DNA of 37,764 bases from assembly GCA_031364765.1 (NCBI GenBank), contig JANLWV010000190.1, forward strand, positions 1 through 37,764. The letters run 5' to 3'. How positions within the stretch are numbered: position 1 is the stretch's first letter; the number at the start of each line of letters is the position of its first letter. The stretch is from Vicinamibacteria bacterium. Lineage in GTDB: Bacteria; Acidobacteriota; Vicinamibacteria; Fen-336; JAGNNV01. The notes under the pieces were generated by a model. The model was not told where the DNA came from. It did no database searches and saw only the letters and a list, made by a program, of their open reading frames with translations. A program made the position numbers and the translations under genes. This document shows, one piece after another, positions 151 through 17,737 of this stretch.

Positions 151-1605
151 CTACGCTGCTCCGGGGTCGGGGGTCTCGGCGCCCTTCTTGGGAGCGATAA
201 GACCGAGCGCCTTCATCTTCTTGTAGAGATACGAGCGTTCGACGCCCAGCGCTTCGGCGGTGCGGCTCATGTTCCCGTGCCAGGCCTCGTGCTTGCTGGC
301 GATGTATCGACGCTCGAAATCCTCGCGCGCGAGGGCCAGCGTTTCGAAGGCGCCCAAGGTCGTAGGGGACGGGATGGGGGTCGCAGCCCCAGGAGGAGCA
401 CCGCTCGCCGGCGCCGACCCGGCCACGGGTTCTGCCGGGCCGAGGGGGGATCGCAGAACGCCGAGATCGCTCACTTCCACGACGTCGCCCTGGGCCATGA
501 TAACGAGGCGTTCGACCATGTTCCGAAGCTCGCGGACGTTGCCGGGCCAGTCATGGGCCACGAGCACCTCCATGGCCCCGGGCGAATAGTCCTTGATGTG
601 CCGCCCGTATTCCGCCGCATAGCCCTTGCTGAAATGCCTCACCAGCATCGGAATGTCTGAGCGGCGTTCCCGCAGGGGTATCACCTGGATCGGAATCACG
701 TTGAGCCGGAAGTACAGGTCATCGCGGAACGCGCCCTTGCGAATCTCGTCCTCGAGGTTCTTGTTGGTCGCGGCGATCACGCGCACATCGACGGTGACGC
801 TCGCGGACCCGCCGACGGGCTCGATCTTCTGCTCCTGCAGAACGCGGAGAACCTTCGCCTGGGTCTTGAGGGTCATATCGCCGATTTCGTCGAGAAACAG
901 CGTGCCGCCGTCCGCGATTTCAAACTTGCCCTTCCGCGAGGCGGTGGCGCCGGTAAACGAGCCCTTGGCATGACCGAAGAGCTCGCTCTCAATCAACTCC
1001 TCGGGAATCGCCGCACAGTTCACTTCGACGAATGGACCCCCGCTGCGCAAGCTCTGCTGGTGGATGCCACGCGCCACGAGCTCCTTCCCCGTGCCGTTTT
1101 CGCCGGTGATCAGAACACGCCCGTTGCTGGGAGCGGCCTGGGCGATCACCCGGAGAAGCTCCTTGATGGCTTCGCTTCCGCCCACAATCTGGTGCTTGTA
1201 CTCGGCCTCGGCCTTGAGGGCGCGGACCTCCTGTTCCAGTTTCCGGCGGCGCAGCGAGTTCGAAACCGCGAGCAGGATGCGCTCGAGCGAAAGAGGCTTC
1301 TCGATGAAGTCGGCCGCCCCCAGGCGAACGGCTTTGACCGCCGTTTCGACCGTGCCGTGACCGGAGATCACGACCACCGGAAGGTCGGGATCGATCGCCT
1401 GAATGCGCATCAGCGTTTCGATGCCGTCGATTCCGGGGAGCCAGACATCGAGAAGGGCCAGTTCATAGCGGTTCGATTCGACCGCCTTCACCCCAGCCTC
1501 GCCGGTCTCCACGGCGTCGACCCGATACCCCTCGTCGGACAGAATCCCCGAGAGTGAGGCCCGGACCCCGGCTTCGTCGTCAACGATCAGGATGCGTTCG
1601 CGCAT
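151..1605 (-). CDS. sigma-54-dependent two-component response regulator (NtrC/Fis family)
   Basis: 484-aa ORF. N-terminal receiver domain (ILIVDDE ... LLDVWLPGIDG). Central AAA+ sigma-54 activator domain (Walker A GENGTGKE, GAFTGA-type loop present as GSFTGA, Walker B TLFLDEIG). C-terminal Fis-type HTH (NMSRTAEALGVERSYLYKKMK). Confidence 0.93.
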   Translation of the reverse strand: MRERILIVDDEAGVRASLSGILSDEGYRVDAVETGEAGVKAVESNRYELALLDVWLPGIDGIETLMRIQAIDPDLPVVVISGHGTVETAVKAVRLGAADFIEKPLSLERILLAVSNSLRRRKLEQEVRALKAEAEYKHQIVGGSEAIKELLRVIAQAAPSNGRVLITGENGTGKELVARGIHQQSLRSGGPFVEVNCAAIPEELIESELFGHAKGSFTGATASRKGKFEIADGGTLFLDEIGDMTLKTQAKVLRVLQEQKIEPVGGSASVTVDVRVIAATNKNLEDEIRKGAFRDDLYFRLNVIPIQVIPLRERRSDIPMLVRHFSKGYAAEYGRHIKDYSPGAMEVLVAHDWPGNVRELRNMVERLVIMAQGDVVEVSDLGVLRSPLGPAEPVAGSAPASGAPPGAATPIPSPTTLGAFETLALAREDFERRYIASKHEAWHGNMSRTAEALGVERSYLYKKMKALGLIAPKKGAETPDPGAA

Positions 1606-1948: not shown

Positions 1949-3136
1949 ATGACTTTCAGCGAAGAGGGCATCGACTCCATGGGGGAACCTGGTCAGCGAA
2001 CCATGGACCGAATGAGCAGAATCGGCGGGACATGGGTTCTCTTATGCCTCCTCCTCAGCGCGTGCAAGGGCGGCGGTCCCCAGGGCGGAGCGGGCGGGCC
2101 GGGTGGCGGCATGCCCCCAAGCGCCGTGGAGATCGTGAATCTGACGCTCAAGCCCGTCGAGCAGACGACCGAATTCGTGGCCACGCTGAAGTCGCGTCGC
2201 TCGAGCACGATTCAACCTCAGGTGGAGGGATTCATCACCCGCATTGCCGTTCGCAGCGGGGAGAGGGTGGCTCAAGGCGCCACGCTCTTCGAAGTGGACT
2301 CGGCGCCCCAGCAGGCGGTCCTCGCCGCGCAACAATCGATGCGGGCGATGCGCGCCGCGGAAGTGGAATACGCGCAGCAGCAAGCGAGGCGAACCCGAAA
2401 ACTGTTTGAAGCGGGCGCGGCCAGTCAGCGCGACGCCGAGGAGGCCGACACGGCCTTGCGCACAAGCGAGGCCCAATTGAAGGCGGTCGACGAACAGGTC
2501 CTCCAACAGCGCGCTGAACTCGGTTATTACAAGGTCACGGCGCCTTCGGCGGGTGTGGTGGGCGACATCCCGGTCCGCATCGGCGACCGGGTGACGAACT
2601 CCACGGTGCTCACGACGGTCGATGAGAACAACGCTCTCGAGGTCTATGTCAGCGTGCCGGTGGCGCAGGCCCCGGGCCTGAAGGCCGGACTTCCCGTGCG
2701 GATCATGGACGATTCGGGCCAGGTGCTCGCCACCAACGGGATCACATTCGTTTCGCCCAACGTGGATGACGCGACCCAGACCGTTCTGGCCAAGGCGACG
2801 CTCGTCGAGGGGCGCGGGATGTTCCGCGCCGACCAGTTCGTCAAGGTGCGCATCGTCTGGCGCTCCGATCTCGGACTCACCATTCCGGTGACCGCGGTCA
2901 TGCGCGTCAACGGCCAGTATTTTGCCTTCGTGGCCGAGAAGGACGACAAGGGCGGGCTCGTGGCCAAGCAACGGGCGGTGCAGCTCGGCGACATCATCGG
3001 AAACGACTACGTCGTGCGCGACGGCCTGAAGCCCGGCGACCAACTGATCGTCTCGGGCCTGCAAAAGATCGGCGACGGCGCGCCGGTGAGGGCCCAAGCA
3101 CCCGCCCCCGCCCCGGAACCGACGAAGGGTCTGTAG
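1949..3136 (+). CDS. efflux RND transporter periplasmic adaptor subunit (MFP, AcrA/HlyD_D23 family)
   Basis: 395-aa ORF with a lipoprotein-like signal (WVLLCLLLSAC), a coiled-coil hairpin segment (QQ..MRAAEVEYAQQQARR...AQLKAVDEQV) and C-terminal beta-barrel/MP domains typical of adaptors. An AAGGA SD lies ~8 nt before ATG 1949. ATGs at 2003/2012 are alternative starts. The gene ends with TAG TAG, 5 nt before the pump gene. Confidence 0.9.
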   Translation: MTFSEEGIDSMGEPGQRTMDRMSRIGGTWVLLCLLLSACKGGGPQGGAGGPGGGMPPSAVEIVNLTLKPVEQTTEFVATLKSRRSSTIQPQVEGFITRIAVRSGERVAQGATLFEVDSAPQQAVLAAQQSMRAMRAAEVEYAQQQARRTRKLFEAGAASQRDAEEADTALRTSEAQLKAVDEQVLQQRAELGYYKVTAPSAGVVGDIPVRIGDRVTNSTVLTTVDENNALEVYVSVPVAQAPGLKAGLPVRIMDDSGQVLATNGITFVSPNVDDATQTVLAKATLVEGRGMFRADQFVKVRIVWRSDLGLTIPVTAVMRVNGQYFAFVAEKDDKGGLVAKQRAVQLGDIIGNDYVVRDGLKPGDQLIVSGLQKIGDGAPVRAQAPAPAPEPTKGL

Positions 3137-3141
3137 TAGCC

Positions 3142-6100
3142 ATGCTCGCTGACGTCTTCATCCGCCGGCCCGTCCTGTCGACGGTCTGCTCCCTGCTGAT
3201 CATTCTCGCGGGCGCGGTGTCGATTCCGACCCTGCCGATCGCCCGCTACCCTGACCTCGCACCGCCCTCGCTCACCGTCTCCGCGGTCTACACCGGCGCC
3301 AACGCCCAGTCGGTGGAGAGCGCGGTGACCACACCACTCGAGCAGGCGATCAATGGCGTCGAGGGGATGACCTACATCACCTCGTCCAGCACCAACAGCG
3401 GCTTCTCCACCATCAACGTCACGTTCGACATCGACCGGGATATTGACCTCGCCGCCGTGGACGTGCAGAACCGCGTGAACCAGGCGCTCGGCCGGATGCC
3501 CGCCGATGTCCGAACCAACGGCATCTCGGTATTCAAGAACACCTCGGGTTGGATGGGCGGCATGGGCTTCTTTTCGAAGGACAACCGCTACAGCAGCCAG
3601 TTCATCAGCAACTACATCGATCTGTACGTGCGGGACGCGGTCAAACGCGTCAAGGGCGTGGGCGACGTCATCATCTTCGGCGAACGCAAGTTCGCCATGC
3701 GGCTGTGGCTCGACCCGGCGAAGCTCGCGGGGCGGCGCCTCACCGCGGGCGACGTGCTCGGCGCCCTGCGTGAACAGAACGTGCAGGTGGCGGCGGGCGC
3801 TTTGGGCGACGCCCCGTCATCGCCCCAACAGATGTTCACCATCAGCGTGCGGGCCATGGGCCGGCTGTCGGAAGCGAGTCAGTTCGAGGACGTCGTGATC
3901 AAGGCGGGCAAAGGTGGCGCGCTGGTGCGGGTCAAGGATGTCGGCCGGGTCGAACTGGGCGCCGAGACCTACTCGTCCAATCTCCGGTTCCTGGGCCTGG
4001 AGGCGCAGGGTATCGGCGTCACTCTCCTCCCCTCCGCCAACGCCATCGACGTGTTCCAGGGCGTCATGGCGGAGATGGCCGTGCTCGAGAAGAGTTTTCC
4101 GCCCGGGCTCGAATGGCGCATGGCGTTCGACAACGTCGTGGTCGTGCGGGAGTCCATCATTGAGGTGGTGAAGACTCTCGCCGAGGCGATCGCCCTGGTC
4201 ATCCTGGTGATGTTCCTGTTTCTCCAGAACTGGCGGAGCACCATCATTCCGGCCATCACCCTTCCGGTTTCGCTGATCGGCACCTTCTCGTTCATCAAGC
4301 TGTTCGGTTTCTCCATCAACACCCTGACCCTTTTCGGCATCGTTCTCGCCACCGGGATCGTGGTCGACGACGCCATCGTGGTGATCGAGAATATCGAACG
4401 CCACATGAGGGAGTTCAAGAAGTCGGCGCATCGGGCGTCGATCGACGCCATGCGCGAGGTCTTTGGCGCGGTGGTCGTGATTGGCCTTGTCCTGGTGGCG
4501 GTCTTCGTTCCGGTGGCTTTCTTCCCCGGTGTCACCGGCCGGCTGTATCAGCAGTTCTCCCTGACCATCGCCTTCGCCGTGGTTCTGTCGGTGTTCAACG
4601 CCGTCACCCTGACTCCCGCCCTTTCCGCCCTGCTTCTCGACAAGGAGAGTCACACCCACGGCCGGTTCTTCACCGCCTTCAACCGCGTGGTGGATAACGG
4701 TACTTCGGCTTACTCGCGCCTGGTCCGAAGGGTCCTTGGACTTCGCGCGGCCATGATCGTGCTGTTCGTGGGCGGCCTCCTGGCCACCTGGGGCGTCTAT
4801 CGCGTGGTTCCGTCGGCTTTCGTTCCCGACGAAGACGAGGGTTACTTCATGGTCCTGGTGCAAGCGCCTGCCGGCGCGTCGCTCGAGTACTCCACGAACA
4901 TCGCCAAAAAGGCCGAGGAGATCATCACAAAGGATCCCGACGTCCTGGCCGCGTTCTCGGTCATGGGCTTCAGCTTTTCGGGGGCCGCGCCCAACAACGG
5001 GATGATCTTTGCGCCGCTCAAGGAATACGCCCAGCGCCGAGGGCCTGAGCACTCGCTCAGCGCCGTCATCAACCGTCTGCGTGGTCCTCTGTTCGGCATT
5101 CCGGGCGCCTTCATCGTCGCCTTCCCCCCTCCGGCGATTCAGGGTCTGGGCGCCTTCGCCGGGTTCCAGTTCGAGCTGCTCGATCAGACCGGCGCCGAAA
5201 GCGTAGACGGCCTGGCCGCCGCGATGAACGGCTTGATCGGAGAGGCGAGCCAGGGCGCCCAGGTGCAGGGCCTCTTCAGCAGCTTCAGCGCAGCCGATCC
5301 GCAGTTGCTCGTCGACATCGACCGCGACAAGGCGCGCAGTCTCGGCCTGCCGCTTTCGGAAGTCACCGACGCCCTTCAGGTGTTCCTGGGGTCGCAGTAC
5401 GTGAATGACTTCGACTTCAACAACCGGGCCTACCGCGTCTATGTCCAGGCCGACCAGCAATTCCGGTCGAGCCCCTCCTCCCTCCGGCAGCTCTACGCGC
5501 GTGCTTCGAGCGGCGACATGGTCTCGCTGGACTCGGTGGTCAAGGTCAAGGAGACGACGGCTCCCTCGGTCATCAGCCATTTCAACCTGTTCCGCTCCGT
5601 GTCGATCTCCGGCAGCCCCGGTCCCGGCGTGAGCTCGGGTCAGGCCCTGGTCGCGATGGAGGATCTGGCGAGCAAGCTCCCGACCGGTTTCACGTTTGCC
5701 TGGTCCGGGCAGTCGCTCGAGGAGATCAAGGCGGGCGCTCAGGCCGGCGCCATCTTCGCCTTGAGCGTCATCCTCGTCTACCTCGTCCTGGCCGCCCAGT
5801 ACGAATCGTTCGTGCTGCCTTTTATCATTCTGCTCGGCGTGCCGCTCGCCATCTTCGGCGCCCTGTCGGCTCAGTGGGTCCGCGGTTTCACCAACGATGT
5901 TTTCTGCCAGGTGGGCCTGATCCTTCTGGTTGGACTCGCCGCGAAGAACTCGATTCTGATCGTGGAATTCGCGGAGCAGCTGCGCGAGCGCGGTCTGTCG
6001 ATTGTGGACGCCGCGGTGGAGTCTTCGCGTATCCGCCTCCGTCCGATCCTGATGACATCGTTCGCGTTCATTCTCGGCGTGCTGCCCCTGGCCTTCGCGA

Positions 6101-7575
6101 CGGGTGCTGGTGCTTCGGGGCGCAACTCGATCGGCACCACCGTCGCGGGCGGCATGCTGGCCTCCACCTTTTTGTCCATCGTTTTCATTCCCGTTCTCTA
6201 CGTGGTCATTCGGACACTCGCCCCCGGACGCGGGCGAAGGGCGCATGACGAGGGTGAAGGTGAAGGCGGGACCGGCACGCTGAGTTCGGGCAGGCCCGGC
6301 CCGGGAACCGCCGGCGTCGCGATCCTGATCATCCTCTCGCTGATAGCACCCGCGGGTGCTCAGACCGCGGTGGAATCGCCCAAGGAGTCCCTCAGCTTTG
6401 AACAAGCGGTCGCCCGCGCGGTCGAGAAGAACCCAACGGTGGCGATCGCCGCCACCAACATCCTGCGTTCGCAGGGCCTGCTCCAGCAGCTCCGCTCGTC
6501 TGGTCTTCCGCGCGTGACCGCGAGCATCAACAACACGACGCTCGACCAGGCTTTTGGCTTTGATGCCGGGATTGTCCAGCCCAAAAACCAGTCGGTGTTT
6601 GGCCTGTCCGTGTCGGTGCCGATTCTGGCCGCCGCGCAGTGGGCGGCGAACGCGCAGGCGAAGGATCGGGTCGAAGTCTCCCGCCTGTCGAGCGCCGATA
6701 TCCGCCGGCAGGTGGCGGTGAGTGCCGCCGCCGCGTACCTCTCCGTCATCACCCAGAGGCGTCTCGTGCAGATCGCCGAACGCTCCCTCGACACGGCGCG
6801 CGCCCAGTTCGACTACAACCGGACGCGCCGCGAGGGCGGCCTGGGCAGCCGGCTGAATGAACTGAGGTCCGGCCAGGTGGTCTCGACTGACGAGACCCTG
6901 GTCGAGACCTTCAAGCTGGGCCTGCGCCGATCGCAGGAAGCGCTCGGCATCCTGCTCGGCGAAGACGGGCCGGTCGACGCGACCGGCGAGCCCACGTTCG
7001 ATATCTCGTCCGCCGACATCACCGACGACTGGATGTCCTCCCGCTCGGACATGCTCCTGCTCGCGGCGGAGCAGCGCGCCGCCCAGAACGTCCTCAAAGG
7101 CAGCTCGAAAGACTGGTGGCCCACGGTCAAGATGTCGTTCGATCCGCAGTACCTGACGCCTTCCGGTCTCTTTCAGCGCTCGAAGAGCTGGCGCCTCTCG
7201 TTCGAACTCTCGCAAACTCTCTACAACGGCGGCGAGCGCGGCGGCGTCCAGCTTCAGCGTCAGGCGAACGCCCAGGCGGCGGACTTCGCTATCGCCCAGC
7301 GCCAGATTCAGGCCCGGGCGGAGATCCGGAATGCGCGCACCGCGGTTGAGGCCTATGGCCGCGTGCTGCTGAGCGCTCGGCTCGCCGCCGAACAGGCGAA
7401 CGAAGTTCTGAAGATCACGATCACCGCGTTCGACGCGGGCGCCTCCACCAATATCGAAGTCATCGAGGCCCAGCGCTCCGCTCGCGACGTTGAAACCGCC
7501 CTCGCACAATCGGAGGATGCGCTGCGACAGGCCCAGTTCGACCTGCTGGTGGCCCTCGGCCGGTTCCCGAAATAG
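3142..7575 (+). CDS. RND (AcrB/HAE1-type) inner-membrane efflux pump fused in frame to a TolC-like outer-membrane factor
   Basis: Single 1477-codon ORF. Residues 1 to ~1023 have the canonical RND layout (N-terminal TM, two large periplasmic loops, 12-TM pattern, motifs such as VVDDAIVVIENIERH and AAKNSILIVEFA). Residues ~1074-1477 look like an OEP/TolC family protein (LSFEQAVARAVEKNPTV..., two tandem coiled-coil/beta repeats, C-terminal QAQFDLLVALG). Between them is a charged linker and a hydrophobic stretch VAILIILSLIAPAGA (6316-6360). There is no stop and no in-frame ATG/GTG/TTG at the junction. Confidence 0.88.
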   Translation: MLADVFIRRPVLSTVCSLLIILAGAVSIPTLPIARYPDLAPPSLTVSAVYTGANAQSVESAVTTPLEQAINGVEGMTYITSSSTNSGFSTINVTFDIDRDIDLAAVDVQNRVNQALGRMPADVRTNGISVFKNTSGWMGGMGFFSKDNRYSSQFISNYIDLYVRDAVKRVKGVGDVIIFGERKFAMRLWLDPAKLAGRRLTAGDVLGALREQNVQVAAGALGDAPSSPQQMFTISVRAMGRLSEASQFEDVVIKAGKGGALVRVKDVGRVELGAETYSSNLRFLGLEAQGIGVTLLPSANAIDVFQGVMAEMAVLEKSFPPGLEWRMAFDNVVVVRESIIEVVKTLAEAIALVILVMFLFLQNWRSTIIPAITLPVSLIGTFSFIKLFGFSINTLTLFGIVLATGIVVDDAIVVIENIERHMREFKKSAHRASIDAMREVFGAVVVIGLVLVAVFVPVAFFPGVTGRLYQQFSLTIAFAVVLSVFNAVTLTPALSALLLDKESHTHGRFFTAFNRVVDNGTSAYSRLVRRVLGLRAAMIVLFVGGLLATWGVYRVVPSAFVPDEDEGYFMVLVQAPAGASLEYSTNIAKKAEEIITKDPDVLAAFSVMGFSFSGAAPNNGMIFAPLKEYAQRRGPEHSLSAVINRLRGPLFGIPGAFIVAFPPPAIQGLGAFAGFQFELLDQTGAESVDGLAAAMNGLIGEASQGAQVQGLFSSFSAADPQLLVDIDRDKARSLGLPLSEVTDALQVFLGSQYVNDFDFNNRAYRVYVQADQQFRSSPSSLRQLYARASSGDMVSLDSVVKVKETTAPSVISHFNLFRSVSISGSPGPGVSSGQALVAMEDLASKLPTGFTFAWSGQSLEEIKAGAQAGAIFALSVILVYLVLAAQYESFVLPFIILLGVPLAIFGALSAQWVRGFTNDVFCQVGLILLVGLAAKNSILIVEFAEQLRERGLSIVDAAVESSRIRLRPILMTSFAFILGVLPLAFATGAGASGRNSIGTTVAGGMLASTFLSIVFIPVLYVVIRTLAPGRGRRAHDEGEGEGGTGTLSSGRPGPGTAGVAILIILSLIAPAGAQTAVESPKESLSFEQAVARAVEKNPTVAIAATNILRSQGLLQQLRSSGLPRVTASINNTTLDQAFGFDAGIVQPKNQSVFGLSVSVPILAAAQWAANAQAKDRVEVSRLSSADIRRQVAVSAAAAYLSVITQRRLVQIAERSLDTARAQFDYNRTRREGGLGSRLNELRSGQVVSTDETLVETFKLGLRRSQEALGILLGEDGPVDATGEPTFDISSADITDDWMSSRSDMLLLAAEQRAAQNVLKGSSKDWWPTVKMSFDPQYLTPSGLFQRSKSWRLSFELSQTLYNGGERGGVQLQRQANAQAADFAIAQRQIQARAEIRNARTAVEAYGRVLLSARLAAEQANEVLKITITAFDAGASTNIEVIEAQRSARDVETALAQSEDALRQAQFDLLVALGRFPK

Positions 7576-7671
7576 GCGAGGTCAGGGGCCGGCGTCGCTG
7601 CGGCCGGGACCATGCGAAGATTGTCGACCCCGTTCGGGCAGACCGACCCATCCACATTCCGGAGAAAAACC

Positions 7672-8562
7672 ATGGAACCAAAAAACGCCGGCGACTTCGA
7701 TCAGGGCGTGTATGACCTCTTCGACAAATTCGTTCACGGCGACATCGATCGACGAGGCTTCATAGATGGCGCGGGCAAGTTCAGCGTTGCCGGCATGACC
7801 GGCGGCATGATCCTTGACGCCCTCACGCCTCGCTTCGCGGAGGCGCAGGTGGTCGCCAAGGACGACAAGCGGATCGTGACGGAGTTCGTCGAGTACCCCT
7901 CTCCGCAGGGCAATGTGAAGATGCGCGGATACCTGGTGCGGCCCGCCGACAAGAAGGGAAAGCTGCCCGGAGTTCTCGTGATTCACGAGAACCGCGGCCT
8001 CAACCCCCACATCGAGGACATCGCGCGTCGAGTCGCTCTCGAGGGCTACATGGCCTTCGCTCCCGACGCGCTCTTCCCCCTCGGCGGCTATCCCGACGAC
8101 GAGGACAAGGCTCGCGAACTGTTTCCGAAGCTCGAGCAGCCGAAGACGCGCGAAGACTTCGTGGCCGCGGTCGCCTGGCTCAAGGGCCGCGGCGACTGCA
8201 CGGGCAAAGTCGCGGCCGTCGGTTTCTGTTACGGCGGCGGCATTGCCAACATGCTGGCCACTCGTATTCCAGATCTCGCCGGCGCGGTCCCTTTCTACGG
8301 TGGGGCGCCGCCCGCTGACGACGTCAAGAGCATCAAGTGCCCGATGCTCATCCATCACGCTGAGAAAGACGAGCGACTGGTCGCCGCCTGGCCGGCCTAC
8401 GAGGAAGCTCTCAAGGCGAACAAAGTTCGATACGAGGGTTTCATCTACCCGGGCGCCCAGCACGGCTTCAACAACGACACCACGCCGCGCTATGACAAGG
8501 CCGCCGCTGATCTGGCCTGGAAGCGGACGGTCGAGTTCTTCCAGAAGAACCTGAAGGGCTAG
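7672..8562 (+). CDS. dienelactone hydrolase family protein with Tat-type signal
   Basis: The ORF is open from 7612. ATG 7672 is preceded by GGAG. A twin-arginine motif DRRGFIDGAG is followed by a hydrophobic stretch and AEA-Q. DLH fold motifs are present (VLVIHENRGL, nucleophile motif GFCYGG, C-terminal HGF). Confidence 0.85.
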   Translation: MEPKNAGDFDQGVYDLFDKFVHGDIDRRGFIDGAGKFSVAGMTGGMILDALTPRFAEAQVVAKDDKRIVTEFVEYPSPQGNVKMRGYLVRPADKKGKLPGVLVIHENRGLNPHIEDIARRVALEGYMAFAPDALFPLGGYPDDEDKARELFPKLEQPKTREDFVAAVAWLKGRGDCTGKVAAVGFCYGGGIANMLATRIPDLAGAVPFYGGAPPADDVKSIKCPMLIHHAEKDERLVAAWPAYEEALKANKVRYEGFIYPGAQHGFNNDTTPRYDKAAADLAWKRTVEFFQKNLKG

Positions 8563-8600: not shown

Positions 8601-9200
8601 ATGAGCGAAGTCACGGCGTCGGCGTTCCTGGCCATGGTCGCGGGACGGCGCGGCCATTTCCAACTTGAATCCGGCCACCACGGCCGGCTCTGGCTCGATC
8701 TCGATGCTCTCTTCGCGGAGGCGAAGCGGATCGAGCCTTTCGTTGCCGCCCTGACCTCCGCAGTTCGCCCTTACGAAGTCACCGCGGTTTGCGGGCCTCT
8801 CCTCGGAGGCGCGTTCCTGGCTCAATGGGTGGCGCGGGAACTCAGCGTAACGTTCTGTTTCACCGAACGAGTGATGGGAGCGAAGACGAGTGGCTTGTAT
8901 CAGGCCAGCTATCGGTTGCCCAAGGCGTTCGTGGAACGGATTCGAGGCGCGCGGGTCGCCATCGTGGACGACGTGATGAGCGCCGGCTCGGCGCTCCGAG
9001 GAACCTACGAGGAACTCCAGTTGCACGGGGCCATTGTGGTGGTCGCCGGAACCCTGCTCTCCCTCGGGTCAACCGGAGCGGATTTTTTCGCCGAGGCTGG
9101 CGTTCCGGTCGAGGCTGTAACCCGGGATGAATATGAACTGTGGCCACCCCAAACCTGTCCGCTCTGCGTCGCGGGTCAGCCCCTCGAACCACGGCATTAG
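8601..9200 (+). CDS. type I phosphoribosyltransferase family protein (PyrE/orotate PRTase-like)
   Basis: 199-aa ORF with GGAG just upstream. N-terminal GHFQLESGHHG motif as in PyrE-like proteins. PRPP-binding loop VAIVDDVMSAGSA. Its stop overlaps the convergent yafY-like stop (TTAG at 9197-9200). Confidence 0.8.
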   Translation: MSEVTASAFLAMVAGRRGHFQLESGHHGRLWLDLDALFAEAKRIEPFVAALTSAVRPYEVTAVCGPLLGGAFLAQWVARELSVTFCFTERVMGAKTSGLYQASYRLPKAFVERIRGARVAIVDDVMSAGSALRGTYEELQLHGAIVVVAGTLLSLGSTGADFFAEAGVPVEAVTRDEYELWPPQTCPLCVAGQPLEPRH

Positions 9201-10180
9201 GGCGCCTTGCTTCTCTTCCTCGGCGCGAGTCGGCCGCGTTCAGCCAGGAGGGCCACATCTCCGGCCACCCGATGGCGAAGACGCTCGGGTGAGAGAACCT
9301 CTGCCCTGGGACCAAAACCGAGGGCCACGAAGCAGGCCTGATCCTCATCATCGAACTCCATGTCTCGCGTGACCCACCCGTCTTTCCGGGCGCGACCCGC
9401 GGCTCCGGGCGGCGACGTGCTACGCCACATGGCCAGTCGTTCCGCGGCCCGCGGCTCCACGCGGAAAGTAGCGGGGTAGCGCTTTCGCCCCTCGCGTAAC
9501 TGGTCCGTCGATGACTTCCAGTGAGCGGCGAGATCAAAACCCGGAGGACGGTCGCTCCGCGCGTCCAGGAGAAACGCCTGATCCATCCGGGAAACTCGGA
9601 AGGTGCGGAACCCCTCGTTCGTGTTGGCCACCAGGTACCAGACGCTGCCCTTGGCCACGAGCCCCAGGGGATCGACGGTGCGCTCGGTGCGCTCGCCATC
9701 CGGCTTGCGATAGTGAAAGGCGAGCTTTCGATCGCGCGCGACGGCCTCCTGGACGACCGGGAGGGCAAGGACGGTCTCGGTCAGTCCGCGCCAGCCGGTG
9801 GTGTCGATATGGAGGCGCTGCCGGATCGAGTTGGCCTGCGCGCGCATGGATATGGGGAGTGACGCCACGAGCTTCCCCAGGGCGCGCTCGGCGGCGGCAG
9901 CGAGTCGTGGATCGCCAAGCACCCGGGGTTGCGCCATGAGAAGCGCGCGCAGTTCCGCTTCGTCGAGACCGGGCACATGGGTGCGCCAGTCTTCGTCCAG
10001 CTGCCATCCTCCGCGCGAGCCGCGCAGCGCGTACACCGGAACACCAGCGGCGCTGAGCGCTTCCATGTCCCGATGCACGGTGCGGCCGGAAACCTCGAGA
10101 CGCTTCGCCATCTCGCGCCCGGTGACGCGGCCGCGAGACTGGAGGAGCAAAAGGGCGGAGAGAAGGCGATCGGCTTTCAT
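9197..10180 (-). CDS. YafY-family transcriptional regulator (wHTH + WYL + WCX domains)
   Basis: 327-aa ORF. N-terminal DeoR/HTH_11-type wHTH (RLLSALLLLQSRGRVTGREMAKRLEVSGRTVHRDMEAL). Central WYL domain including the literal WYL (KGSVWYLVAN). C-terminal extension typical of the family. Confidence 0.9.
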   Translation of the reverse strand: MKADRLLSALLLLQSRGRVTGREMAKRLEVSGRTVHRDMEALSAAGVPVYALRGSRGGWQLDEDWRTHVPGLDEAELRALLMAQPRVLGDPRLAAAAERALGKLVASLPISMRAQANSIRQRLHIDTTGWRGLTETVLALPVVQEAVARDRKLAFHYRKPDGERTERTVDPLGLVAKGSVWYLVANTNEGFRTFRVSRMDQAFLLDARSDRPPGFDLAAHWKSSTDQLREGRKRYPATFRVEPRAAERLAMWRSTSPPGAAGRARKDGWVTRDMEFDDEDQACFVALGFGPRAEVLSPERLRHRVAGDVALLAERGRLAPRKRSKAP

Positions 10181-11239: not shown

Positions 11240-13831
11240 CTACTCCATGCGCATCACCGTGGTCGGATCCACCCGAACGGCGCGGAGCGCCGGCAACAGG
11301 CTGCCGAGGAGGGTCATGACGGCGGCGAGGCCTCCCGCGACGGCGTATGTGGGCAGGTCCGCTGCACTCAGGCCGGCGAGAAGATTCTGCATCCCGCGAC
11401 CGGCGGCGTAGGCGAACCCGAGGCCGAGCCCGAGTCCGATCGTGGCCATGCGCAACGTGTCGCGCAGAATCAACGAGAGGATGTCTTTGGAGCCCGCGCC
11501 GAGGGCCATCCGCACCCCGATTTCCTGGGTGCGACTCGTGACCGCGTACGAGAGCACGCCATGGAGGCCGACCGCGGCGAGCAGGAAGGCCACGGCCGCG
11601 AACGCGGCGAGGACGCGCACCTGGACCCGGCGCGGCGCGGTCTCGCCCAGGACGATGTCGTCGAGGAGACGCACGTCGGAGATCGGCTGTTGAGGATCCG
11701 CCTTTTGGATGATCGCGCGCAAGGACGGCATCAGGTCGAGCGGCTGGCCGGCCGCCCGAATGACCAGGTCCTTCGGCGTGTATCCGATGATGGAGTTGTC
11801 CGCCACCTGCTGGTAGGACAGGTACACCTGGGGCTCGCTGTTTCGTTCAAGCCCGCGCACCCTCACATGCCCAACGACGCCCACCACGGTGCGCTCCGCC
11901 GCCGGTCCGAACCGAAAACGCCGCCCGATCGGATCCTGCCCCGGCCAGTGACGCTTCGCGAGGGATTCGCTGACCACGGCCACGAATGGAGCCTCGCGTG
12001 TGTCCGACTCGCTGATATCGCGGCCAGAAACGAGGGGGATGCCAAGGGTCGCGAAAAAGCCCGGCGTGACGAAACGCGACGCGGCGGGCGGCAGAGCGCC
12101 CGGATCCTGCTCCTCACCCGGAACGGCAACTCCCCAAATCTGCCCCCGCGTGACCATCGGCAGGCCAGTCACGTATGCGGCAGATGAAACACCGGGAAGC
12201 GCGCGCACGTCGGAAAGGACGCGGTTGTAGAACTGCACGCGATTCGCGGTCGGCCCGTATCGGGGCAGGGGCAGGGCGGTGCGCAGGGTGAGGACGCCGG
12301 CGGTTCGAAATCCGGGATCGACGGTCTGAACACGCCAGAGCGCGCGCAAAAGCAGGCCGCAACAGACGAGCAGCACGACGGACGCTGTCACCTCCGCGAC
12401 CACCAACCCCGAACGCGCCCCCTCGCGACGGCCGCCGACCCCCGCGCGCGAGCCCTCCTGCAGGCCGTTCACGAAGGCGGCGCCGCAGGCCCGGACGGCC
12501 GGCAGCACGCCGAAGGCAATGCCGGTCGCGGCGGTGAGGACCAGCGCGAAAACCAGCAGGCGGAGATCCATGGGCGGTGTCTCCGCGATGGGCAGCGCGT
12601 TCGGTACGAGTCGGGCCAGCAGCGGAACCGCCGAGGCAGCGATGAGCACGCCCAACCCTCCTCCCGCGGCGGCGAGGAGGAGGCTCTCGGTAAGGAGTTG
12701 CCGGACGAGGCGCTCACGGCCGGCGCCGAGGGCCGCTCGAACTGCGAGCTCTTTCCGACGGACCATGGCGCGCGCGAGGAGAAGGTTCGTCAGGTTGGTG
12801 CACGCGATCAAGAGCACGCAGGCCGCGGCTCCGAGAAGAGCGAGGGGAAGCAGTCGCGCCTCGGCCGAAAGCCCGTCGCGGAGACGGTCGACGGTGGCGC
12901 CGGTGTTTGCATTCTCGTTCGGGAACGCTCGCTCCAGCTGGGCGGTCACGACGCTCATCTCCGAACGGGCCGCCGCGGCGGAGACGCTCTTCTTGAGTCG
13001 CGCGATGCCGTAGACGTAATTGTTGTCGCGTTCCTCGAAGTCTTCATCCTTGAATCGTTTTGAAATCCAGATCTGGGTGTCGCGGTTCGGGAAACGGAAC
13101 GTCGGAGGCATCACCCCCACGACAGTGTGCGGCGCTCCATCGAGAAACACCTTGCGTCCGAGCACCCTCTCATCGCCGCCAAAGCGGCCCTGCCAGAGTC
13201 CGTAGCTGAGCACCACGGTGTCCGGTGCTCCTGGTCCATCGTCCTGGGATGCGAACGCGCGGCCAAGGACGGGACCCACACCCAGAAGGTTCAACACCTC
13301 AGAGGTCACCCACACCCCCTCCAGACGCTGCGGCTCGCCGTCGCCGCCGAGGTTCACGGCCTGCGAGCCGAAGGCGCCCATGTCCTCGAACGACCGGCTC
13401 ATACGCTTCCAGTCGCGATAGTTTGCCGGCGAAAGCTCGGTGTGGCCGTAGCCGTTCTGGTTCTGCCAGAGTCTCACCAGCCGGTCCGGCTGCGAGAACG
13501 GGAGCGACCGGAAGAGCACGTGGTCGGTCACCGAGAACGCCGCGGTGGTGGCGCCGACGCCGAGTGCGGCCACCAGGATCGCGGTGATCGTGAAACCGGG
13601 AGCCCGACCGAGTGAACGGGCGGTGAAACGCAGGTCCTGGCGAAGGATGTCCCAGTGAACCATGACCGCGTTCGGAATCACGTCGAACAGCGTCGCGACC
13701 CAGAGGCTCAGCCGTTGGGCGTTTCCCTCAGCTTCTTGAAGGCGCCGGGCAAAGATGCGGCGCATTTCTTCGGCGTATTCAAGCCGGAATGATTTCGGAA
13801 AGAGGCGGAGCAGGGCGTCGTAGAGTTTCAT
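11240..13831 (-). CDS. ADOP-family (acidobacterial duplicated orphan permease) MacB/FtsX-type ABC permease
   Basis: 863-aa ORF with the characteristic N-terminus (LLRLFPKSFRLEYAEEMRRIF), two MacB periplasmic domains and two FtsX 4-TM modules. It overlaps the upstream PadR gene by 4 bp. Confidence 0.92.
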   Translation of the reverse strand: MKLYDALLRLFPKSFRLEYAEEMRRIFARRLQEAEGNAQRLSLWVATLFDVIPNAVMVHWDILRQDLRFTARSLGRAPGFTITAILVAALGVGATTAAFSVTDHVLFRSLPFSQPDRLVRLWQNQNGYGHTELSPANYRDWKRMSRSFEDMGAFGSQAVNLGGDGEPQRLEGVWVTSEVLNLLGVGPVLGRAFASQDDGPGAPDTVVLSYGLWQGRFGGDERVLGRKVFLDGAPHTVVGVMPPTFRFPNRDTQIWISKRFKDEDFEERDNNYVYGIARLKKSVSAAAARSEMSVVTAQLERAFPNENANTGATVDRLRDGLSAEARLLPLALLGAAACVLLIACTNLTNLLLARAMVRRKELAVRAALGAGRERLVRQLLTESLLLAAAGGGLGVLIAASAVPLLARLVPNALPIAETPPMDLRLLVFALVLTAATGIAFGVLPAVRACGAAFVNGLQEGSRAGVGGRREGARSGLVVAEVTASVVLLVCCGLLLRALWRVQTVDPGFRTAGVLTLRTALPLPRYGPTANRVQFYNRVLSDVRALPGVSSAAYVTGLPMVTRGQIWGVAVPGEEQDPGALPPAASRFVTPGFFATLGIPLVSGRDISESDTREAPFVAVVSESLAKRHWPGQDPIGRRFRFGPAAERTVVGVVGHVRVRGLERNSEPQVYLSYQQVADNSIIGYTPKDLVIRAAGQPLDLMPSLRAIIQKADPQQPISDVRLLDDIVLGETAPRRVQVRVLAAFAAVAFLLAAVGLHGVLSYAVTSRTQEIGVRMALGAGSKDILSLILRDTLRMATIGLGLGLGFAYAAGRGMQNLLAGLSAADLPTYAVAGGLAAVMTLLGSLLPALRAVRVDPTTVMRME

Positions 13832-14377: not shown

Positions 14378-15004
14378 ATGGGAATCGCGGAACGAAAAGA
14401 GAGGGAAAAAGAGGATGTGAGGCGTCAGATCCTCGATGCCGCGCACGACCTCTTCGAAACCCAGGGTTACGAGAACGTCACGATGCGCGCCGTCGCCGAT
14501 GCCATCGAGTACTCCCCGGCCACGATCTATCTTCATTTCGCTAGCAAGGACGCGCTGGTCGAAGCCCTCTGCTTCGAGGACTTCGGCCGGTTGTCGGCGG
14601 CCATGAACCGGGCGCCCCTGCCCAGAAATCCGGTCGATCGAATTCGCGCGCTCGGCCGGGCCTACGCCGCCTTCGGGCTGGCGAATCCGAATCACTACCG
14701 GTTCATGTTCATGACCGCGGGCGATTGGAAGAAGCACGCCAATGAAGTCGACTCACCTCCCGCGCGTTCGTACGCGGTGTTGAGGCAGGCGGTTGTGGAG
14801 GCGATCGACCAGGGCTTCTTCGCGAAGAACGATGTGGACCTCGTCTCGCAGATCCTCTGGTCGGCCATCCACGGCGTCGTCTCCCTGGTGATCACGTTCA
14901 AGCCCGAGCAATTCCCGCGCGCACCCCCGCGCCCCGGCCTCGTCGAAGCCTCGATCGAGGCGACACTTCAGGGCCTGCTGGTCGGCCGAGAGGACAAGGC
15001 GTAG
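14378..15004 (+). CDS. TetR/AcrR family transcriptional regulator
   Basis: 208-aa ORF with GGAG 9 nt upstream and the TetR_N HTH (RRQILDAAHDLFETQGYENVTMRAVADAIEYSPATIYLHFASKDALV). Confidence 0.93.
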   Translation: MGIAERKEREKEDVRRQILDAAHDLFETQGYENVTMRAVADAIEYSPATIYLHFASKDALVEALCFEDFGRLSAAMNRAPLPRNPVDRIRALGRAYAAFGLANPNHYRFMFMTAGDWKKHANEVDSPPARSYAVLRQAVVEAIDQGFFAKNDVDLVSQILWSAIHGVVSLVITFKPEQFPRAPPRPGLVEASIEATLQGLLVGREDKA

Positions 15005-15006
15005 TC

Positions 15007-16131
15007 ATGGTTTCGCTCGCTCGAAAGAATCTCCTGCACGACCGGATTCGATTCGCGATCACGCTCGCCGGCGTTGGCTTCGCGGTGACGCTGGTCCTCG
15101 TTCAAGTCGGTCTCTTCCTTGGCCTCCTCGACAAGGCGACGGTGTCCATCCGGCGTTCGAACGCGGATATCTGGATCGTGGGCAAGAACACGCCGAATAT
15201 CGACTTCGGCAAGCCCTTTCCGGAAACCACCGTCCTCCGCGCCCGCGGCATCCCCGGCGTGGAGCGAGCCGACAACGTGAGTGTTCAATTCATCAATACC
15301 CAGCTTCCGACCGGCGCCACCGAGAACTCGGAGGTCTTCGCGCTAAACGATCCCGGCTTCTGGGGTCTGCCCTGGAAGCTCGAATCCGGGCGTGCGGACG
15401 ACCTCTCGCGCGGGTACAACCTTGTGATGGATCGCTCCGCAACTCGACGGTTTGGAGCCTTCGCGGTCGGCGAATATCGGGAACTCGGAGGCCGCCGGTT
15501 CCGAATCGTCGGTCGAAGCGCCGAAGCGGAGTCGTTCACCACGACGCCCGTCGTCTTCATGGACTTCGCCAACGCTCAAAGCCTCCTCGAACAGCTTCGC
15601 GGGCAGACGACGTACGTGCTGGTCAAAGTGGCGCGGGGGTTCGATCCCGCCGAGGTTGCGGCGCGTCTTCGGCCGATGCTCCCGTACAACGATGTCCACA
15701 CCCGCGATGCCTGGGCGGCGCAATCGCGCGGTTACTGGATCAAGTCGACCGGCCTCGGAATGAGCATGGGGGTCACGGTGTTCCTCGGGATCCTCGTCGG
15801 CGTGGTCATCGTCGCCCAGACGCTCTACACCTCGGCGGTGGAGAACATCCGGCAATTCGGCACCGTCAAGGCCATCGGCGGATCGAACTGGGACATCTAC
15901 AAGATTCTCGGCGAGCAGGCGCTGATCGCCGCGGTCTTTGGTTTCCTCCTCGGCGCCGGAGCTTCGTACGCGGTGCGCCCAGCCATGGCCAGCCTTCATC
16001 TGACCGTTCACCTGACCCCGCAGTTTTCCGGAATCGTCTTCGTCGGCACCGTGGCCATGTGCCTGGCCGCCGCTCTTTTCTCCTTCCGTCGCGTGGCTCT
16101 GATCGACCCCGCGCTCGTCTTCCGAGGGTAA
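15007..16131 (+). CDS. ABC transporter permease (FtsX/MacB/DevC-like)
   Basis: 374-aa ORF with an N-terminal TM (RFAITLAGVGFAVTLVLVQVGLF), a periplasmic MacB_PCD-like domain and a C-terminal FtsX 3-TM bundle. It starts 3 nt after the TetR stop. Confidence 0.88.
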   Translation: MVSLARKNLLHDRIRFAITLAGVGFAVTLVLVQVGLFLGLLDKATVSIRRSNADIWIVGKNTPNIDFGKPFPETTVLRARGIPGVERADNVSVQFINTQLPTGATENSEVFALNDPGFWGLPWKLESGRADDLSRGYNLVMDRSATRRFGAFAVGEYRELGGRRFRIVGRSAEAESFTTTPVVFMDFANAQSLLEQLRGQTTYVLVKVARGFDPAEVAARLRPMLPYNDVHTRDAWAAQSRGYWIKSTGLGMSMGVTVFLGILVGVVIVAQTLYTSAVENIRQFGTVKAIGGSNWDIYKILGEQALIAAVFGFLLGAGASYAVRPAMASLHLTVHLTPQFSGIVFVGTVAMCLAAALFSFRRVALIDPALVFRG

Positions 16132-16136
16132 GGCCC

Positions 16137-16823
16137 TTGAAAAAAGTCCTGGAAGCCCGCGCCATTCGAAAGACTTTCGAGGAAGGCTCGCAGCGCGTGG
16201 AGGTTCTGCGCGGCGTGAGCCTCGACATAAGAGCCGGCGAGATCGTCGCGCTGGAAGGCCCGTCGGGTTCGGGCAAGACCACCCTGCTCTCGATCATGGG
16301 CTGCATCCTCACCCCCAGCGCGGGTGAGATCCACATCGGGGGTCAAAGGATCAGCGGGAACGACAACGCCCTGCGCGACGCCCGTCGAAAATCGATCGGC
16401 TTTGTCTTCCAGCAATTCAACCTCTTCCCCGCCCTCACCGCCCGCGAAAACATCATCTATGCGCTTGGGATCAAGGGAAACAAGGGCGCGCGCGCTTTGG
16501 TCGAGGCGGATCGCGTCCTCGACGCCGTCGGACTGACCGACCGGAAGAGCTTCCTCCCTCGCGATCTGACCGGCGGCCAGAAACAGCGTGTGGCCATCGC
16601 GAGGGCCCTCGCCGGTTCGCCCGATGTGATCCTCGCCGACGAACCGACCGCCAATCTCGACTCCGCGGTGGGCGTGCAGATCCTCGATCTGTTCCGCGAC
16701 CTCGCCAAGAGCGAGAACAAGGGGCTCATCATCGTGACCCACGACCCCAAGGTCCGCCGGATCGCGGACCGGGCGGTGGGCATCGCAGACGGCCTCCTGC
16801 TTCAAGAGGCCCACGCGGCCTGA
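16137..16823 (+). CDS. ABC transporter ATP-binding protein (MacB/LolD-type)
   Basis: TTG 16137 is in frame 6 nt after the permease stop; the ORF is open from 16059, but that part overlaps the permease gene. Walker A GPSGSGKTT, Q-loop, signature LTGGQKQRVAIARAL, Walker B ILADEPT, H-loop THD. Confidence 0.92.
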   Translation: MKKVLEARAIRKTFEEGSQRVEVLRGVSLDIRAGEIVALEGPSGSGKTTLLSIMGCILTPSAGEIHIGGQRISGNDNALRDARRKSIGFVFQQFNLFPALTARENIIYALGIKGNKGARALVEADRVLDAVGLTDRKSFLPRDLTGGQKQRVAIARALAGSPDVILADEPTANLDSAVGVQILDLFRDLAKSENKGLIIVTHDPKVRRIADRAVGIADGLLLQEAHAA

Positions 16824-16855
16824 TCCGATTCTTCAGAAAAAAGGACCAAACCACC

Positions 16856-17737
16856 ATGCGTTCAAGTCTTGTCTTGCTTTCACTGTCTGGAATCGGCCTC
16901 GCCCTTCTCGCCGGGACCGTACTGCAGGCGCGCCCTCAGGGAGTCGAGGCGTCGCCGACCGTCACCACCGGGCTCGTTCCGCGCGCCGGTGTGGCCGCCG
17001 AGGGCCGCGTGGTCGCGTACCCCGGCGCTGAGGTCACCATTGGAGCCGATGCGATCGGCCGACTGCTGCGCGTGAACGTGGAGGAGGGTGACACCGTGCG
17101 GACGGGCCAGGTTCTCGCCGAGATCGACGCCAGCGATTTGACGGCGAGCCGCGACGAAGCGAAGGCCCGGCTTGAGGAGGCGGTCGCGGAAAGGCATCTC
17201 GCGCAATTGAACGCCGATCGCAAGGTTCGTCTCTTCTCCGAAGGGGTCCTCCCCGCCCACGACCGCGACGCCGCGGCCCGCGACGTGGAGATCACGCAGG
17301 CGCGGATCGAAACCGCCAATGCTTCGATCCGGCGTCTCGAGGCCACGATCGCAAAGACGCGGATGATCGCTCCGATCGGCGGCACCGTGACCTCAAGGAT
17401 CGTCAATGCCGGACAGATGGTCGATCGTGGCGACCCCGCGTTCGTCATCGCGGATTTGGACCGCCTGCGCATCGAGGGCGAGGCCCATGAGGCCGACGCC
17501 TCGCGCGTGGGGATCGGCGCCGAAGTCGAGATCCGCGCGGATGGTTTCCCGGGCCAGACCTTCCGCGGCCGCGTCGAGGAAATCCCCGGCAGCGTGACCC
17601 TGCGTCGGATCAAGCCGCAGGACCCGGCACGGCCCACGGATGTTCGCGTGTTGGCGTTGAAGGTCGCGTTCGACGGGAAAACGCCGCTCAAGCTCGGGAG
17701 CACCGTCGACCTGGTGGTCAGCGCTTCCCTGAGGTAG
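16856..17737 (+). CDS. HlyD/MFP family efflux periplasmic adaptor subunit
   Basis: 293-aa ORF with a signal/anchor (LVLLSLSGIGLALLAG), a lipoyl-like/barrel-sandwich motif (GDTVRTGQVLAEID), a coiled-coil and a beta-barrel (IAPIGGTVTSR). It is the fourth gene of the TetR-permease-ATPase-adaptor cluster. Confidence 0.88.
   Translation: MRSSLVLLSLSGIGLALLAGTVLQARPQGVEASPTVTTGLVPRAGVAAEGRVVAYPGAEVTIGADAIGRLLRVNVEEGDTVRTGQVLAEIDASDLTASRDEAKARLEEAVAERHLAQLNADRKVRLFSEGVLPAHDRDAAARDVEITQARIETANASIRRLEATIAKTRMIAPIGGTVTSRIVNAGQMVDRGDPAFVIADLDRLRIEGEAHEADASRVGIGAEVEIRADGFPGQTFRGRVEEIPGSVTLRRIKPQDPARPTDVRVLALKVAFDGKTPLKLGSTVDLVVSASLR

Follow-up and report, generated by a model that had tools for sequence, protein, structure and literature searches.

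Introduction

Gram-negative bacteria owe their intrinsic drug efflux chiefly to tripartite pumps of the resistance-nodulation-division (RND) family. Two of them, AcrAB-TolC of Escherichia coli and MexAB-OprM of Pseudomonas aeruginosa, are close described relatives of the locus considered here, in which a single open reading frame (ORF) encodes an RND permease and, behind it, a TolC-type outer-membrane factor (OMF). The same three components occur in each of these systems, namely the permease in the inner membrane, a periplasmic adaptor or membrane fusion protein (MFP), and the OMF, which is often shared between pumps, and to our knowledge they have always been described as separate polypeptides. 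In AcrB-type pumps the N- and the C-terminus are both cytoplasmic. The fused ORF (positions 3,142 to 7,575) was found in a stretch of 37,764 nucleotides from a Vicinamibacteria bacterium (Acidobacteriota; contig JANLWV010000190.1 of GenBank assembly GCA_031364765.1, forward strand), and this whole stretch is referred to below as the window.

The comparisons presented here demonstrate that the fusion is no artefact, that it is ancient and has recurred, and that selection acts on it. They also make it probable, in our judgment, that the gene encodes a polyprotein in which an internal signal peptide, to be cut by signal peptidase I, would form the 13th segment that crosses the membrane.

Pump and Channel in One Reading Frame

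The efflux operon of the window consists of two genes, the first for the MFP and the second the RND::OMF fusion, with 5 nt from the MFP stop codon to the fused ORF, which ends with a stop codon at 7573-7575 and contains no internal stop (Table 1). A first-pass annotation, made by a model from the letters of the window, had proposed that pump and OMF lie in one frame, and this is borne out by the ORF list, the stop-free translation and the Pfam and NCBIfam matches; the coordinates it gave for the linker, the hydrophobic segment and the OMF start are exact. An antisense ORF of 1230 aa (3817-7509, minus strand) lies within the fused gene, and because the sense frame has 85% G+C at third codon positions (GC3) together with full-length family matches, it is dismissed as a high-GC3 artefact that is almost certainly no gene.

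The pump half is a complete HAE1-type permease. Pfam ACR_tran (PF00873) covers aa 3-1024 (E = 0, profile positions 2-1021 of 1021), two NCBIfam RND permease models score over their curated cutoffs [NF000282 (RND_permease_1), 1275.4 vs. 1250; TIGR00915, 1243 vs. 940], and aa 4-1025 are colinear with AcrB, MexB and other solved RND pumps (E ~1e-254 to 1e-267). With a 19-residue window, hydropathy gives 12 peaks at AcrB-like positions (one at 11-29, six in 342-549 and five in 866-1023), corresponding to the 12 transmembrane segments (TMs) of such pumps, and the two large periplasmic loops after TM1 and TM7 are present. As to the residues that we take to form the proton relay (D407, D408, K940, R971 and T978 in AcrB numbering), the TM4 Asp-Asp motif GIVVDDAIVV, and likewise GLAAKNSILIVEFA, match their counterparts in an alignment with the closest solved RND pump, 7wlv, the TM10 Lys motif is retained in the alignment with solved RND pumps, and the TM11 Arg/Thr motif, RIRLRPILMTS, can be read from the translation. 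An HAE1 permease should end soon after TM12, in the cytoplasm; here the chain runs 454 aa further.

The distal part of this extension is an OMF. Pfam OEP (PF02321) matches it in two stretches up to aa 1473 (1.5e-37), in keeping with the two tandem repeats of the family, while the scores over aa 1083-1474 for TIGR01844 TolC (76.5 bits, cutoff 225) and TIGR01845 NodT (68.2 bits, cutoff 210) stay below threshold; this half is a divergent OMF, classifiable at the superfamily level only, and its nearest solved relatives by sequence are OprJ and OprM. An AlphaFold2 (AF2) model of aa 961-1477, based on an alignment of 24 sequences, gives the OMF part a predicted local distance difference test score (pLDDT) of ~90 and the element order helix, helix, strand, strand, 68-residue helix, helix, twice over, which is the TolC fold with its four beta-strands and long alpha-helical hairpins per protomer. 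Foldseek against the PDB retrieved TolC, ST50, OprJ, OprM, VceC, CmeC, CusC and TOprJ1 with target-normalized TM-scores of 0.69-0.82 (E ~1e-17), the range being 0.74-0.82 for 1ek9 (TolC), 5azs (OprJ), 3pik (CusC) and 9j3d (TOprJ1). The linker is modeled as disordered (pLDDT < 50) and the hydrophobic segment as a short helix. The OMF half has no N-terminal signal peptide of its own; the segment resembling one is internal and lacks a Met.

Recurrence of the Fusion and Selection on Both Halves

When one genome per GTDB species was scanned, 242 species had a relative, and the best 80 loci, nearly all of them from metagenome-assembled genomes (MAGs) of Vicinamibacteria, Vicinamibacterales or Acidobacteriota, were analyzed by tblastn and stop-to-stop ORFs. 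Pump and OMF share one frame with no stop between them in 54 of the 80 loci. About 40 of these 54 are complete ORFs (1456-1920 codons from stop to stop) that hold pump residues 1-1023 and the whole OMF, and the others end at contig edges; some 20 loci have two genes, and six are too incomplete to reveal the junction. The fusion was also abundant in a database of 5.8 billion proteins. With the last 477 aa as query there were many matches at 100% query coverage that contain PF00873 and PF02321 (49-74% identity), from NCBI, ENA and JGI projects, most of which are shortened only by short contigs. With the full-length query the best 120 matches are all fused (PF00873 + PF02321; 1298-1508 aa, 116 at >= 1460) and, the query itself excepted, 69-86% identical. 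Overall, the fused relatives, from NCBI, ENA, JGI and Logan sources, span 48-86% identity. On one contig of 5.9 Mb a gene caller places an MFP gene (391 aa), a single fused gene of 1490 aa and then a gene on the opposite strand, and the MFP gene is directly upstream in every testable locus (40/40 fused, 19/19 unfused). This recurrence of the in-frame junction is far beyond chance. The same fusion, for which a domain-architecture search of relatives had been suggested at the first pass, has therefore been found, and the orthologs are not, as that annotation had allowed for, uniformly two genes.

For ten pairs of fused genes, Nei-Gojobori dN/dS is 0.025-0.13 in the pump half and 0.04-0.165 in the OMF half, values that indicate strong purifying selection on both. 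These ratios bear on the least appealing explanation of the long ORF, that it is an artefact of assembly or sequencing (a lost stop, a frameshift) or a decaying pseudogene fusion. Errors of this kind do exist among the relatives, as nanopore-based MAGs (L060, L073, L077, L079) have frameshifts in the gene. Nevertheless, an in-frame junction that recurs in the independent assemblies of 54 species and in over 100 proteins from metagenomes, together with low dN/dS in both halves (0.03-0.17) and ~1470 codons free of stops, excludes assembly error and pseudogene decay, and we assign them virtually no probability. The records of L015, L032, L037, L039, L048, L053, L054, L056, L060, L061, L066 and L073 carry the titles Bifidobacteriaceae, Cyanobacteriota/cyanobacterium or Acidimicrobiia, and on loci of the Vicinamibacteria type these look like taxonomic mislabels of MAGs.

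The Junction Carries a Signal Peptidase Pattern

Behind TM12 of the window protein there is a 13th hydropathy peak at aa 1059-1077 (19-residue window). Its hydrophobic core (h-region) has 11 residues (VAILIILSLIA) and is followed by Pro-Ala-Gly-Ala/Gln, where the slash marks the predicted cut. A short h-region followed by Pro is typical of cleaved signal peptides and is short for a stable TM. Recognition by signal peptidase I follows the -3/-1 Ala-X-Ala rule (PMC9360617). The segment has both an h-region within the usual ~7-15 residues and small residues at -3 and -1 behind it, with the site predicted after Ala1073 (AGA/QT), between nt 6360 and 6361.

How constant this pattern is was assessed in 171 distinct fused junctions, comprising the 54 loci, the window and the full-length matches. 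All 171 have a hydrophobic core (best 9-residue Kyte-Doolittle mean 2.2-3.6) and a site that obeys the (-3,-1) rule, which is A-x-A in 158 and V/S/T/L-x-A in the remainder; [AVSTGCIL]-x-A-Q occurs in 164. On the two sides of the core the sequence varies freely: the linker ahead of it has 18-63 aa and no conserved sequence, and the spacer past the predicted site, which would be the mature N-terminus, is hypervariable and about 0-79 aa long. Aligned relatives accordingly follow one plan, that is, the pump end (...FIPVLYVVIRTLAPGR..R), a variable acidic/Gly/Pro linker, the hydrophobic stretch, P-A-x-A-Q and the OMF start (VTFDEAIARALEKNPTVAIA...), and the signal peptidase I pattern has been kept while its surroundings drifted. 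Tandem peptide repeats were seen beside the junction, past the predicted site or in the linker, in P0019 (APLYGVPPVTQAAQSSQTRR) and L056 (ESATAEAVALRTQ, five times), and the linker of L052 carries the tandem repeat RRGGSLDPPA. A lipoprotein OMF was considered and rejected because neither a Cys nor a lipobox is present there in the gene of the window; a Cys is found near the site in 5/171 junctions.

A segment of this kind might also stay uncut, as a permanent 13th TM from which the OMF-like domain extends into the periplasm as a tethered part of the pump, and its hydropathy peak is indeed comparable with those of the pump TMs in a 19-residue window. This we consider improbable. The core has just ~11 residues before P-A-G-A/Q, and the canonical c-region is kept in 171/171 junctions, although nothing would maintain its motif if the chain were never cut. 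The OMF, moreover, retains the full TolC fold, including its four-strand beta-barrel part, under purifying selection. Geometry points the same way. In the AF2 model the first OMF helix begins 12 residues past the predicted site. It sits under the beta-barrel by the length of a helix of ~23 residues, and the tip of the 68-residue helix is far beneath it; going by the dimensions of TolC and AcrB, a distance well in excess of 100 Angstrom separates this level from the inner membrane in an assembled pump. A tether of 12 aa, or of the family median of 17, would be too short to reach this equatorial region, and cleavage therefore seems to be geometrically needed.

Origin of the Fusion from Overlapping Genes

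Unfused relatives (for example L059, L063, L065-L067, L069-L072, L074-L078 and L080) keep the order MFP-RND-OMF. Their OMFs are 45-51% identical to the fused ones, and their pumps can be aligned over the full length, with a tail of the form APGR..H that ends in ...H-[A/V]-stop. Of the 20 unfused loci, about 16, from more distant relatives, have both genes intact. In 15 the two genes, which are in different frames, overlap by 8 nt, the ATG of the OMF preceding the stop codon of the pump by 5 nt (cATGnnTAG), and four of the other five are nanopore MAGs with frameshifts. Such an overlapping stop and start is usually taken as translational coupling. An ancestral state of this kind would fit the argument of the first-pass annotation that, both partners being homotrimers, synthesis at 1:1 makes stoichiometric sense.

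At their N-terminus the unfused OMFs have a Met, a basic n-region, an h-region and AxA/Q (e.g., MRKRVLPAGAVLMATILAAAAPAQA/QT), and in the alignment their h-region and AxA/Q fall on the same columns as the internal segment in fused proteins. Homology between this segment and a real N-terminal signal peptide is, as judged from the alignment, well supported, and the resemblance to a signal peptide with an AxA site that had been noted at the first pass has thereby gained an evolutionary footing. The linker, for its part, derives from the C-terminal tail of the pump and a remnant of the OMF n-region: that of the window can be aligned with the tails in which unfused pumps end (APGRG..H..[AV]-stop), and many fused linkers contain Gly-His-Gly (..CAT GGx..), a relic of the old pump end and ATG.

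Neighbor-joining trees built from the OMF part and from the C-terminal 520 aa of the pump agree on one large fused clade, which includes the window, and on a separate small fused clade (L042, L043, L045, L047, L049 and L050), which is nested among unfused lineages and has a different junction, a linker of 18-21 aa with ...SRSH-M-[ED]-K, in which the former ATG is conserved and now in frame. The trees and the distinct junction anatomy indicate that the fusion arose at least twice, from overlapping RND and OMF genes, through indels that changed the frame in the overlap or directly behind it. Four 'MFD' long-read MAGs (L060, L073, L077 and L079) have frameshifts or stops in the pump or at the junction, which leave the OMF without a signal peptide, and these splits are probably indel errors and not real gene splits. 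L060 and L073 are the 'unfused' members of the large clade; because they lack a signal peptide and are nanopore MAGs with pump frameshifts, they are probably sequencing errors.

Initiation Within the Linker

An ancestry of coupled re-initiation at an overlapping ATG raises the possibility that the OMF is still made separately, by initiation inside the linker, and that the read-through fusion is minor or irrelevant. A candidate start had been named in the first-pass annotation, the CTG at 6280, which follows a GAAGG repeat and whose product would bear a plausible signal peptide (LSSGRPGPGTAG plus the h-region), and the short-linker clade keeps an in-frame ATG just before the h-region. The codons between argue strongly to the contrary. 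As the same annotation had stated, and as the codon list and a codon census now confirm, the window gene has no in-frame ATG, GTG or TTG from the end of TM12 to the hydrophobic segment, and the same is true of nine relatives in the census. Scattered Val GTG codons are all that the large fused clade offers, with no positionally conserved start codon or Shine-Dalgarno-like motif, and the closest relatives do not conserve the Leu encoded by CTG 6280. CTG initiation is, furthermore, very inefficient in bacteria. Internal initiation cannot be the general route, and as the explanation of this gene we give it only a small chance. Even where it occurs, the fused precursor would still be made, because ribosomes that have translated the pump meet no stop and read through.

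Proposed Biogenesis of the Two Proteins

According to the polyprotein reading, pump and channel would be translated as one 158-kDa precursor. The chain that leaves TM12 would be in the cytoplasm, anchored there by the RGRR cluster of the window linker (the median number of Lys and Arg in the first 16 residues after TM12 is 4 across the family junctions), and the signal peptide kept from what was once a separate OMF gene would then insert through SecYEG with its N-terminal side in and its C-terminal side out. This orientation is expected because an Arg/Lys cluster after TM12 fits the positive-inside rule. The first-pass annotation had called the topology coherent, and by hydropathy and alignment the succession of 12 TMs, a basic cluster and an N-in/C-out segment would be just that. 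The OMF moiety of ~400 aa would be exported in the same way as the two periplasmic loops of the pump, which are ~300 aa each. A cut by signal peptidase I after Ala1073 (AGA) would free a 43.9-kDa OMF beginning with QTAVESPKE, which would trimerize and enter the outer membrane by the usual route, and the 114-kDa pump would retain, in its C-terminal tail, the used signal peptide as a 13th segment. The end product would be an ordinary tripartite pump with an obligatory 1:1 ratio of pump to channel, its OMF having been delivered co-translationally where the pump inserts. Of these steps, we infer the insertion orientation, the cleavage by signal peptidase I, and the release and assembly of the OMF. 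Peptides should distinguish the two states of the protein, in that an uncut precursor would yield tryptic peptides across the junction (...GPGTAGVAILIILSLIAPAGAQTAVESPK) while a cut OMF would have the N-terminus QTAVESPK, with or without its Gln as pyroglutamate.

Several observations weigh against this scheme. The n-region is atypical: in many members few or no basic residues directly precede the h-region, where there is an acidic stretch instead, and the basic cluster is 20-30 residues upstream, right behind TM12. In the window a single Arg is found 12 residues before the h-region, relatives often have none, and neither the N-terminal location nor the basic n-region of a standard signal peptide is present. 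Few polytopic proteins of bacteria are known to us in which signal peptidase I cuts behind an internal segment. In the short-linker clade, with its conserved in-frame ATG, internal initiation could contribute, and both it and read-through are conceivable there. Finally, the two trees are simple neighbor-joining trees without support values.

It is possible, though we offer the idea tentatively and would sooner bet against it, that the fusion is an adaptive device of biogenesis and not a neutral accident. The OMF would reach the membrane co-translationally by way of the targeting of its pump and would be released by signal peptidase, at the internal site, right above the nascent pump trimer. 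Each pump trimer would seed its own OMF trimer (cis-assembly at 1:1), and the 13th helix would have a structural role, in an arrangement that evolved at least twice from overlapping gene pairs that were presumably coupled in translation.

Other Genes of the Window

Divergent from the efflux operon is the gene of an NtrC-type response regulator. No match to the sigma-54 promoter consensus (TGGCAC-N5-TTGC) was found in the intergenic region 1606-1948, and the window-wide count of such matches is at chance level; a link between regulator and operon is accordingly not supported. Immediately downstream of the fused gene there is a dienelactone hydrolase gene, which like the WYL-domain regulator beyond it has no evident link to the pump. 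Further on lie a permease of a type common in Acidobacteria and a second, MacAB-like efflux locus without an OMF gene of its own. As a speculation, the fused OMF could, if released, serve this locus too.

Table 1. Coordinates of the fused gene, its parts and other genes of the window.
Feature	Position	Strand	Description
Sigma-54-dependent response regulator, NtrC type	151..1605	-	Response_reg + Sigma54_activat + HTH_8
MFP periplasmic adaptor gene	1949..3136	+	395 aa; TIGR01730 RND_mfp 5.4e-62 (209.6 bits, cutoff 94.9), HlyD_D23
Fused RND::OMF ORF	3142..7575	+	ATG start, 1477 aa, 158-kDa precursor
RND pump domain (HAE1, AcrB-type)	3142..6210	+	aa 1-1023; 12 TMs; ACR_tran full length
Cytoplasmic linker	6211..6315	+	aa 1024-1058; RTLAPGRGRRAHDEGEGEGGTGTLSSGRPGPGTAG; basic cluster, then acidic/Gly/Pro tail
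Internal signal peptide (predicted)	6316..6360	+	aa 1059-1073; VAILIILSLIAPAGA; h-region VAILIILSLIA, c-region PAGA
Mature OMF (predicted), TolC fold	6361..7572	+	aa 1074-1477; 404 aa, 43.9 kDa; starts QTAVESPKE
Dienelactone hydrolase	7612-8562	+	N-terminal YqhI-like segment
WYL-domain HTH regulator	9197-10180	-	
Permease	11240-13831	-	863 aa; duplicated MacB_PCD + FtsX modules
MacAB-like efflux locus	14378-17737	+	
TetR regulator	14378-15004	+	MacAB-like locus
FtsX/MacB_PCD permease	15007-16131	+	MacAB-like locus
ORF	16059-16823	+	MacAB-like locus
HlyD-type adaptor	16856-17737	+	MacAB-like locus

Discussion

A complete pump and a complete channel are encoded by one gene in an abundant soil lineage, the Vicinamibacteria, and this arrangement has been stable over deep divergence. 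The finished machine would be ordinary; it is the gene architecture and the proposed route of biogenesis that set it apart, and a channel of the outer membrane made behind an inner-membrane pump is unexpected and experimentally tractable. If cleavage occurs as proposed, this would be a rare bacterial case of signal peptidase I processing a polyprotein that includes a polytopic protein, and a natural case in which an outer-membrane protein, being the tail of an inner-membrane one, is fed into the Sec pathway co-translationally. It would also provide a ready system for the coupling of outer-membrane protein targeting, stoichiometry and pump assembly. There is a practical consequence as well. The existing annotation of the fused matches reads just 'HAE1 exporter' or 'RND permease', and because annotation pipelines assign only these labels, the OMF complement of such genomes is undercounted.

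The fusion appears not to have been described or interpreted before. Full-text searches of PMC (7.7 million papers) and bioRxiv (0.34 million preprints) for a fusion of RND and OMF or of AcrB and TolC, including searches on Vicinamibacter efflux and on PF00873+PF02321 architectures, found no description, nor did searches for polyproteins with internal signal peptides, in agreement with the remark in the first-pass annotation that no characterized pump-OMF fusion was known. A term search of a survey of fused outer-membrane proteins gave no RND-OMF fusion, and the part of a large efflux review that was covered mentions none (PMC8277102). Domain-architecture databases presumably list the PF00873+PF02321 combination implicitly, since it can be seen in the precomputed Pfam assignments of the fused matches. 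Within the RND superfamily a natural fusion of two adjacent genes is known in SecDF of Thermus thermophilus (PMC8277102). Both halves of SecDF remain in the inner membrane and are not separated, so that neither the cleavage of an internal signal peptide nor a second membrane is involved.

Compared with the known efflux systems, the operon of the window has the gene order of MexAB-OprM. Unlike in MexAB-OprM and AcrAB-TolC, its RND and OMF parts form one ORF with no stop or internal start, and the signal peptide of the OMF is internal. OprM is a lipoprotein, whereas the OMF of the window, which has no Cys at the site, is not, and it is divergent in sequence. The unfused pairs of Vicinamibacterales and Acidobacteriota are of the same families, with the same order, pump tail and AxA/Q, and differ in being two genes, of which the OMF gene has its own Met and signal peptide. 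In mechanism the nearest analog known to us is the FbcH polyprotein of Bradyrhizobium japonicum, which, in the work of Thony-Meyer et al. (1989-1991), is reported to join cytochrome b, a polytopic inner-membrane protein with a cytoplasmic end, through an internal signal peptide to its periplasm-facing partner, cytochrome c1, and to undergo cleavage of the signal peptidase type that gives the two at 1:1. The gene described here has the same architecture, with a polytopic protein and an exported partner in one ORF and a predicted cleavable signal peptide between them. This is an analogy of mechanism and not homology, as the families are unrelated, and while the partner in FbcH reportedly stays in the inner membrane, the OMF released from the pump would have to reach the outer membrane and fold there into a beta-barrel trimer.

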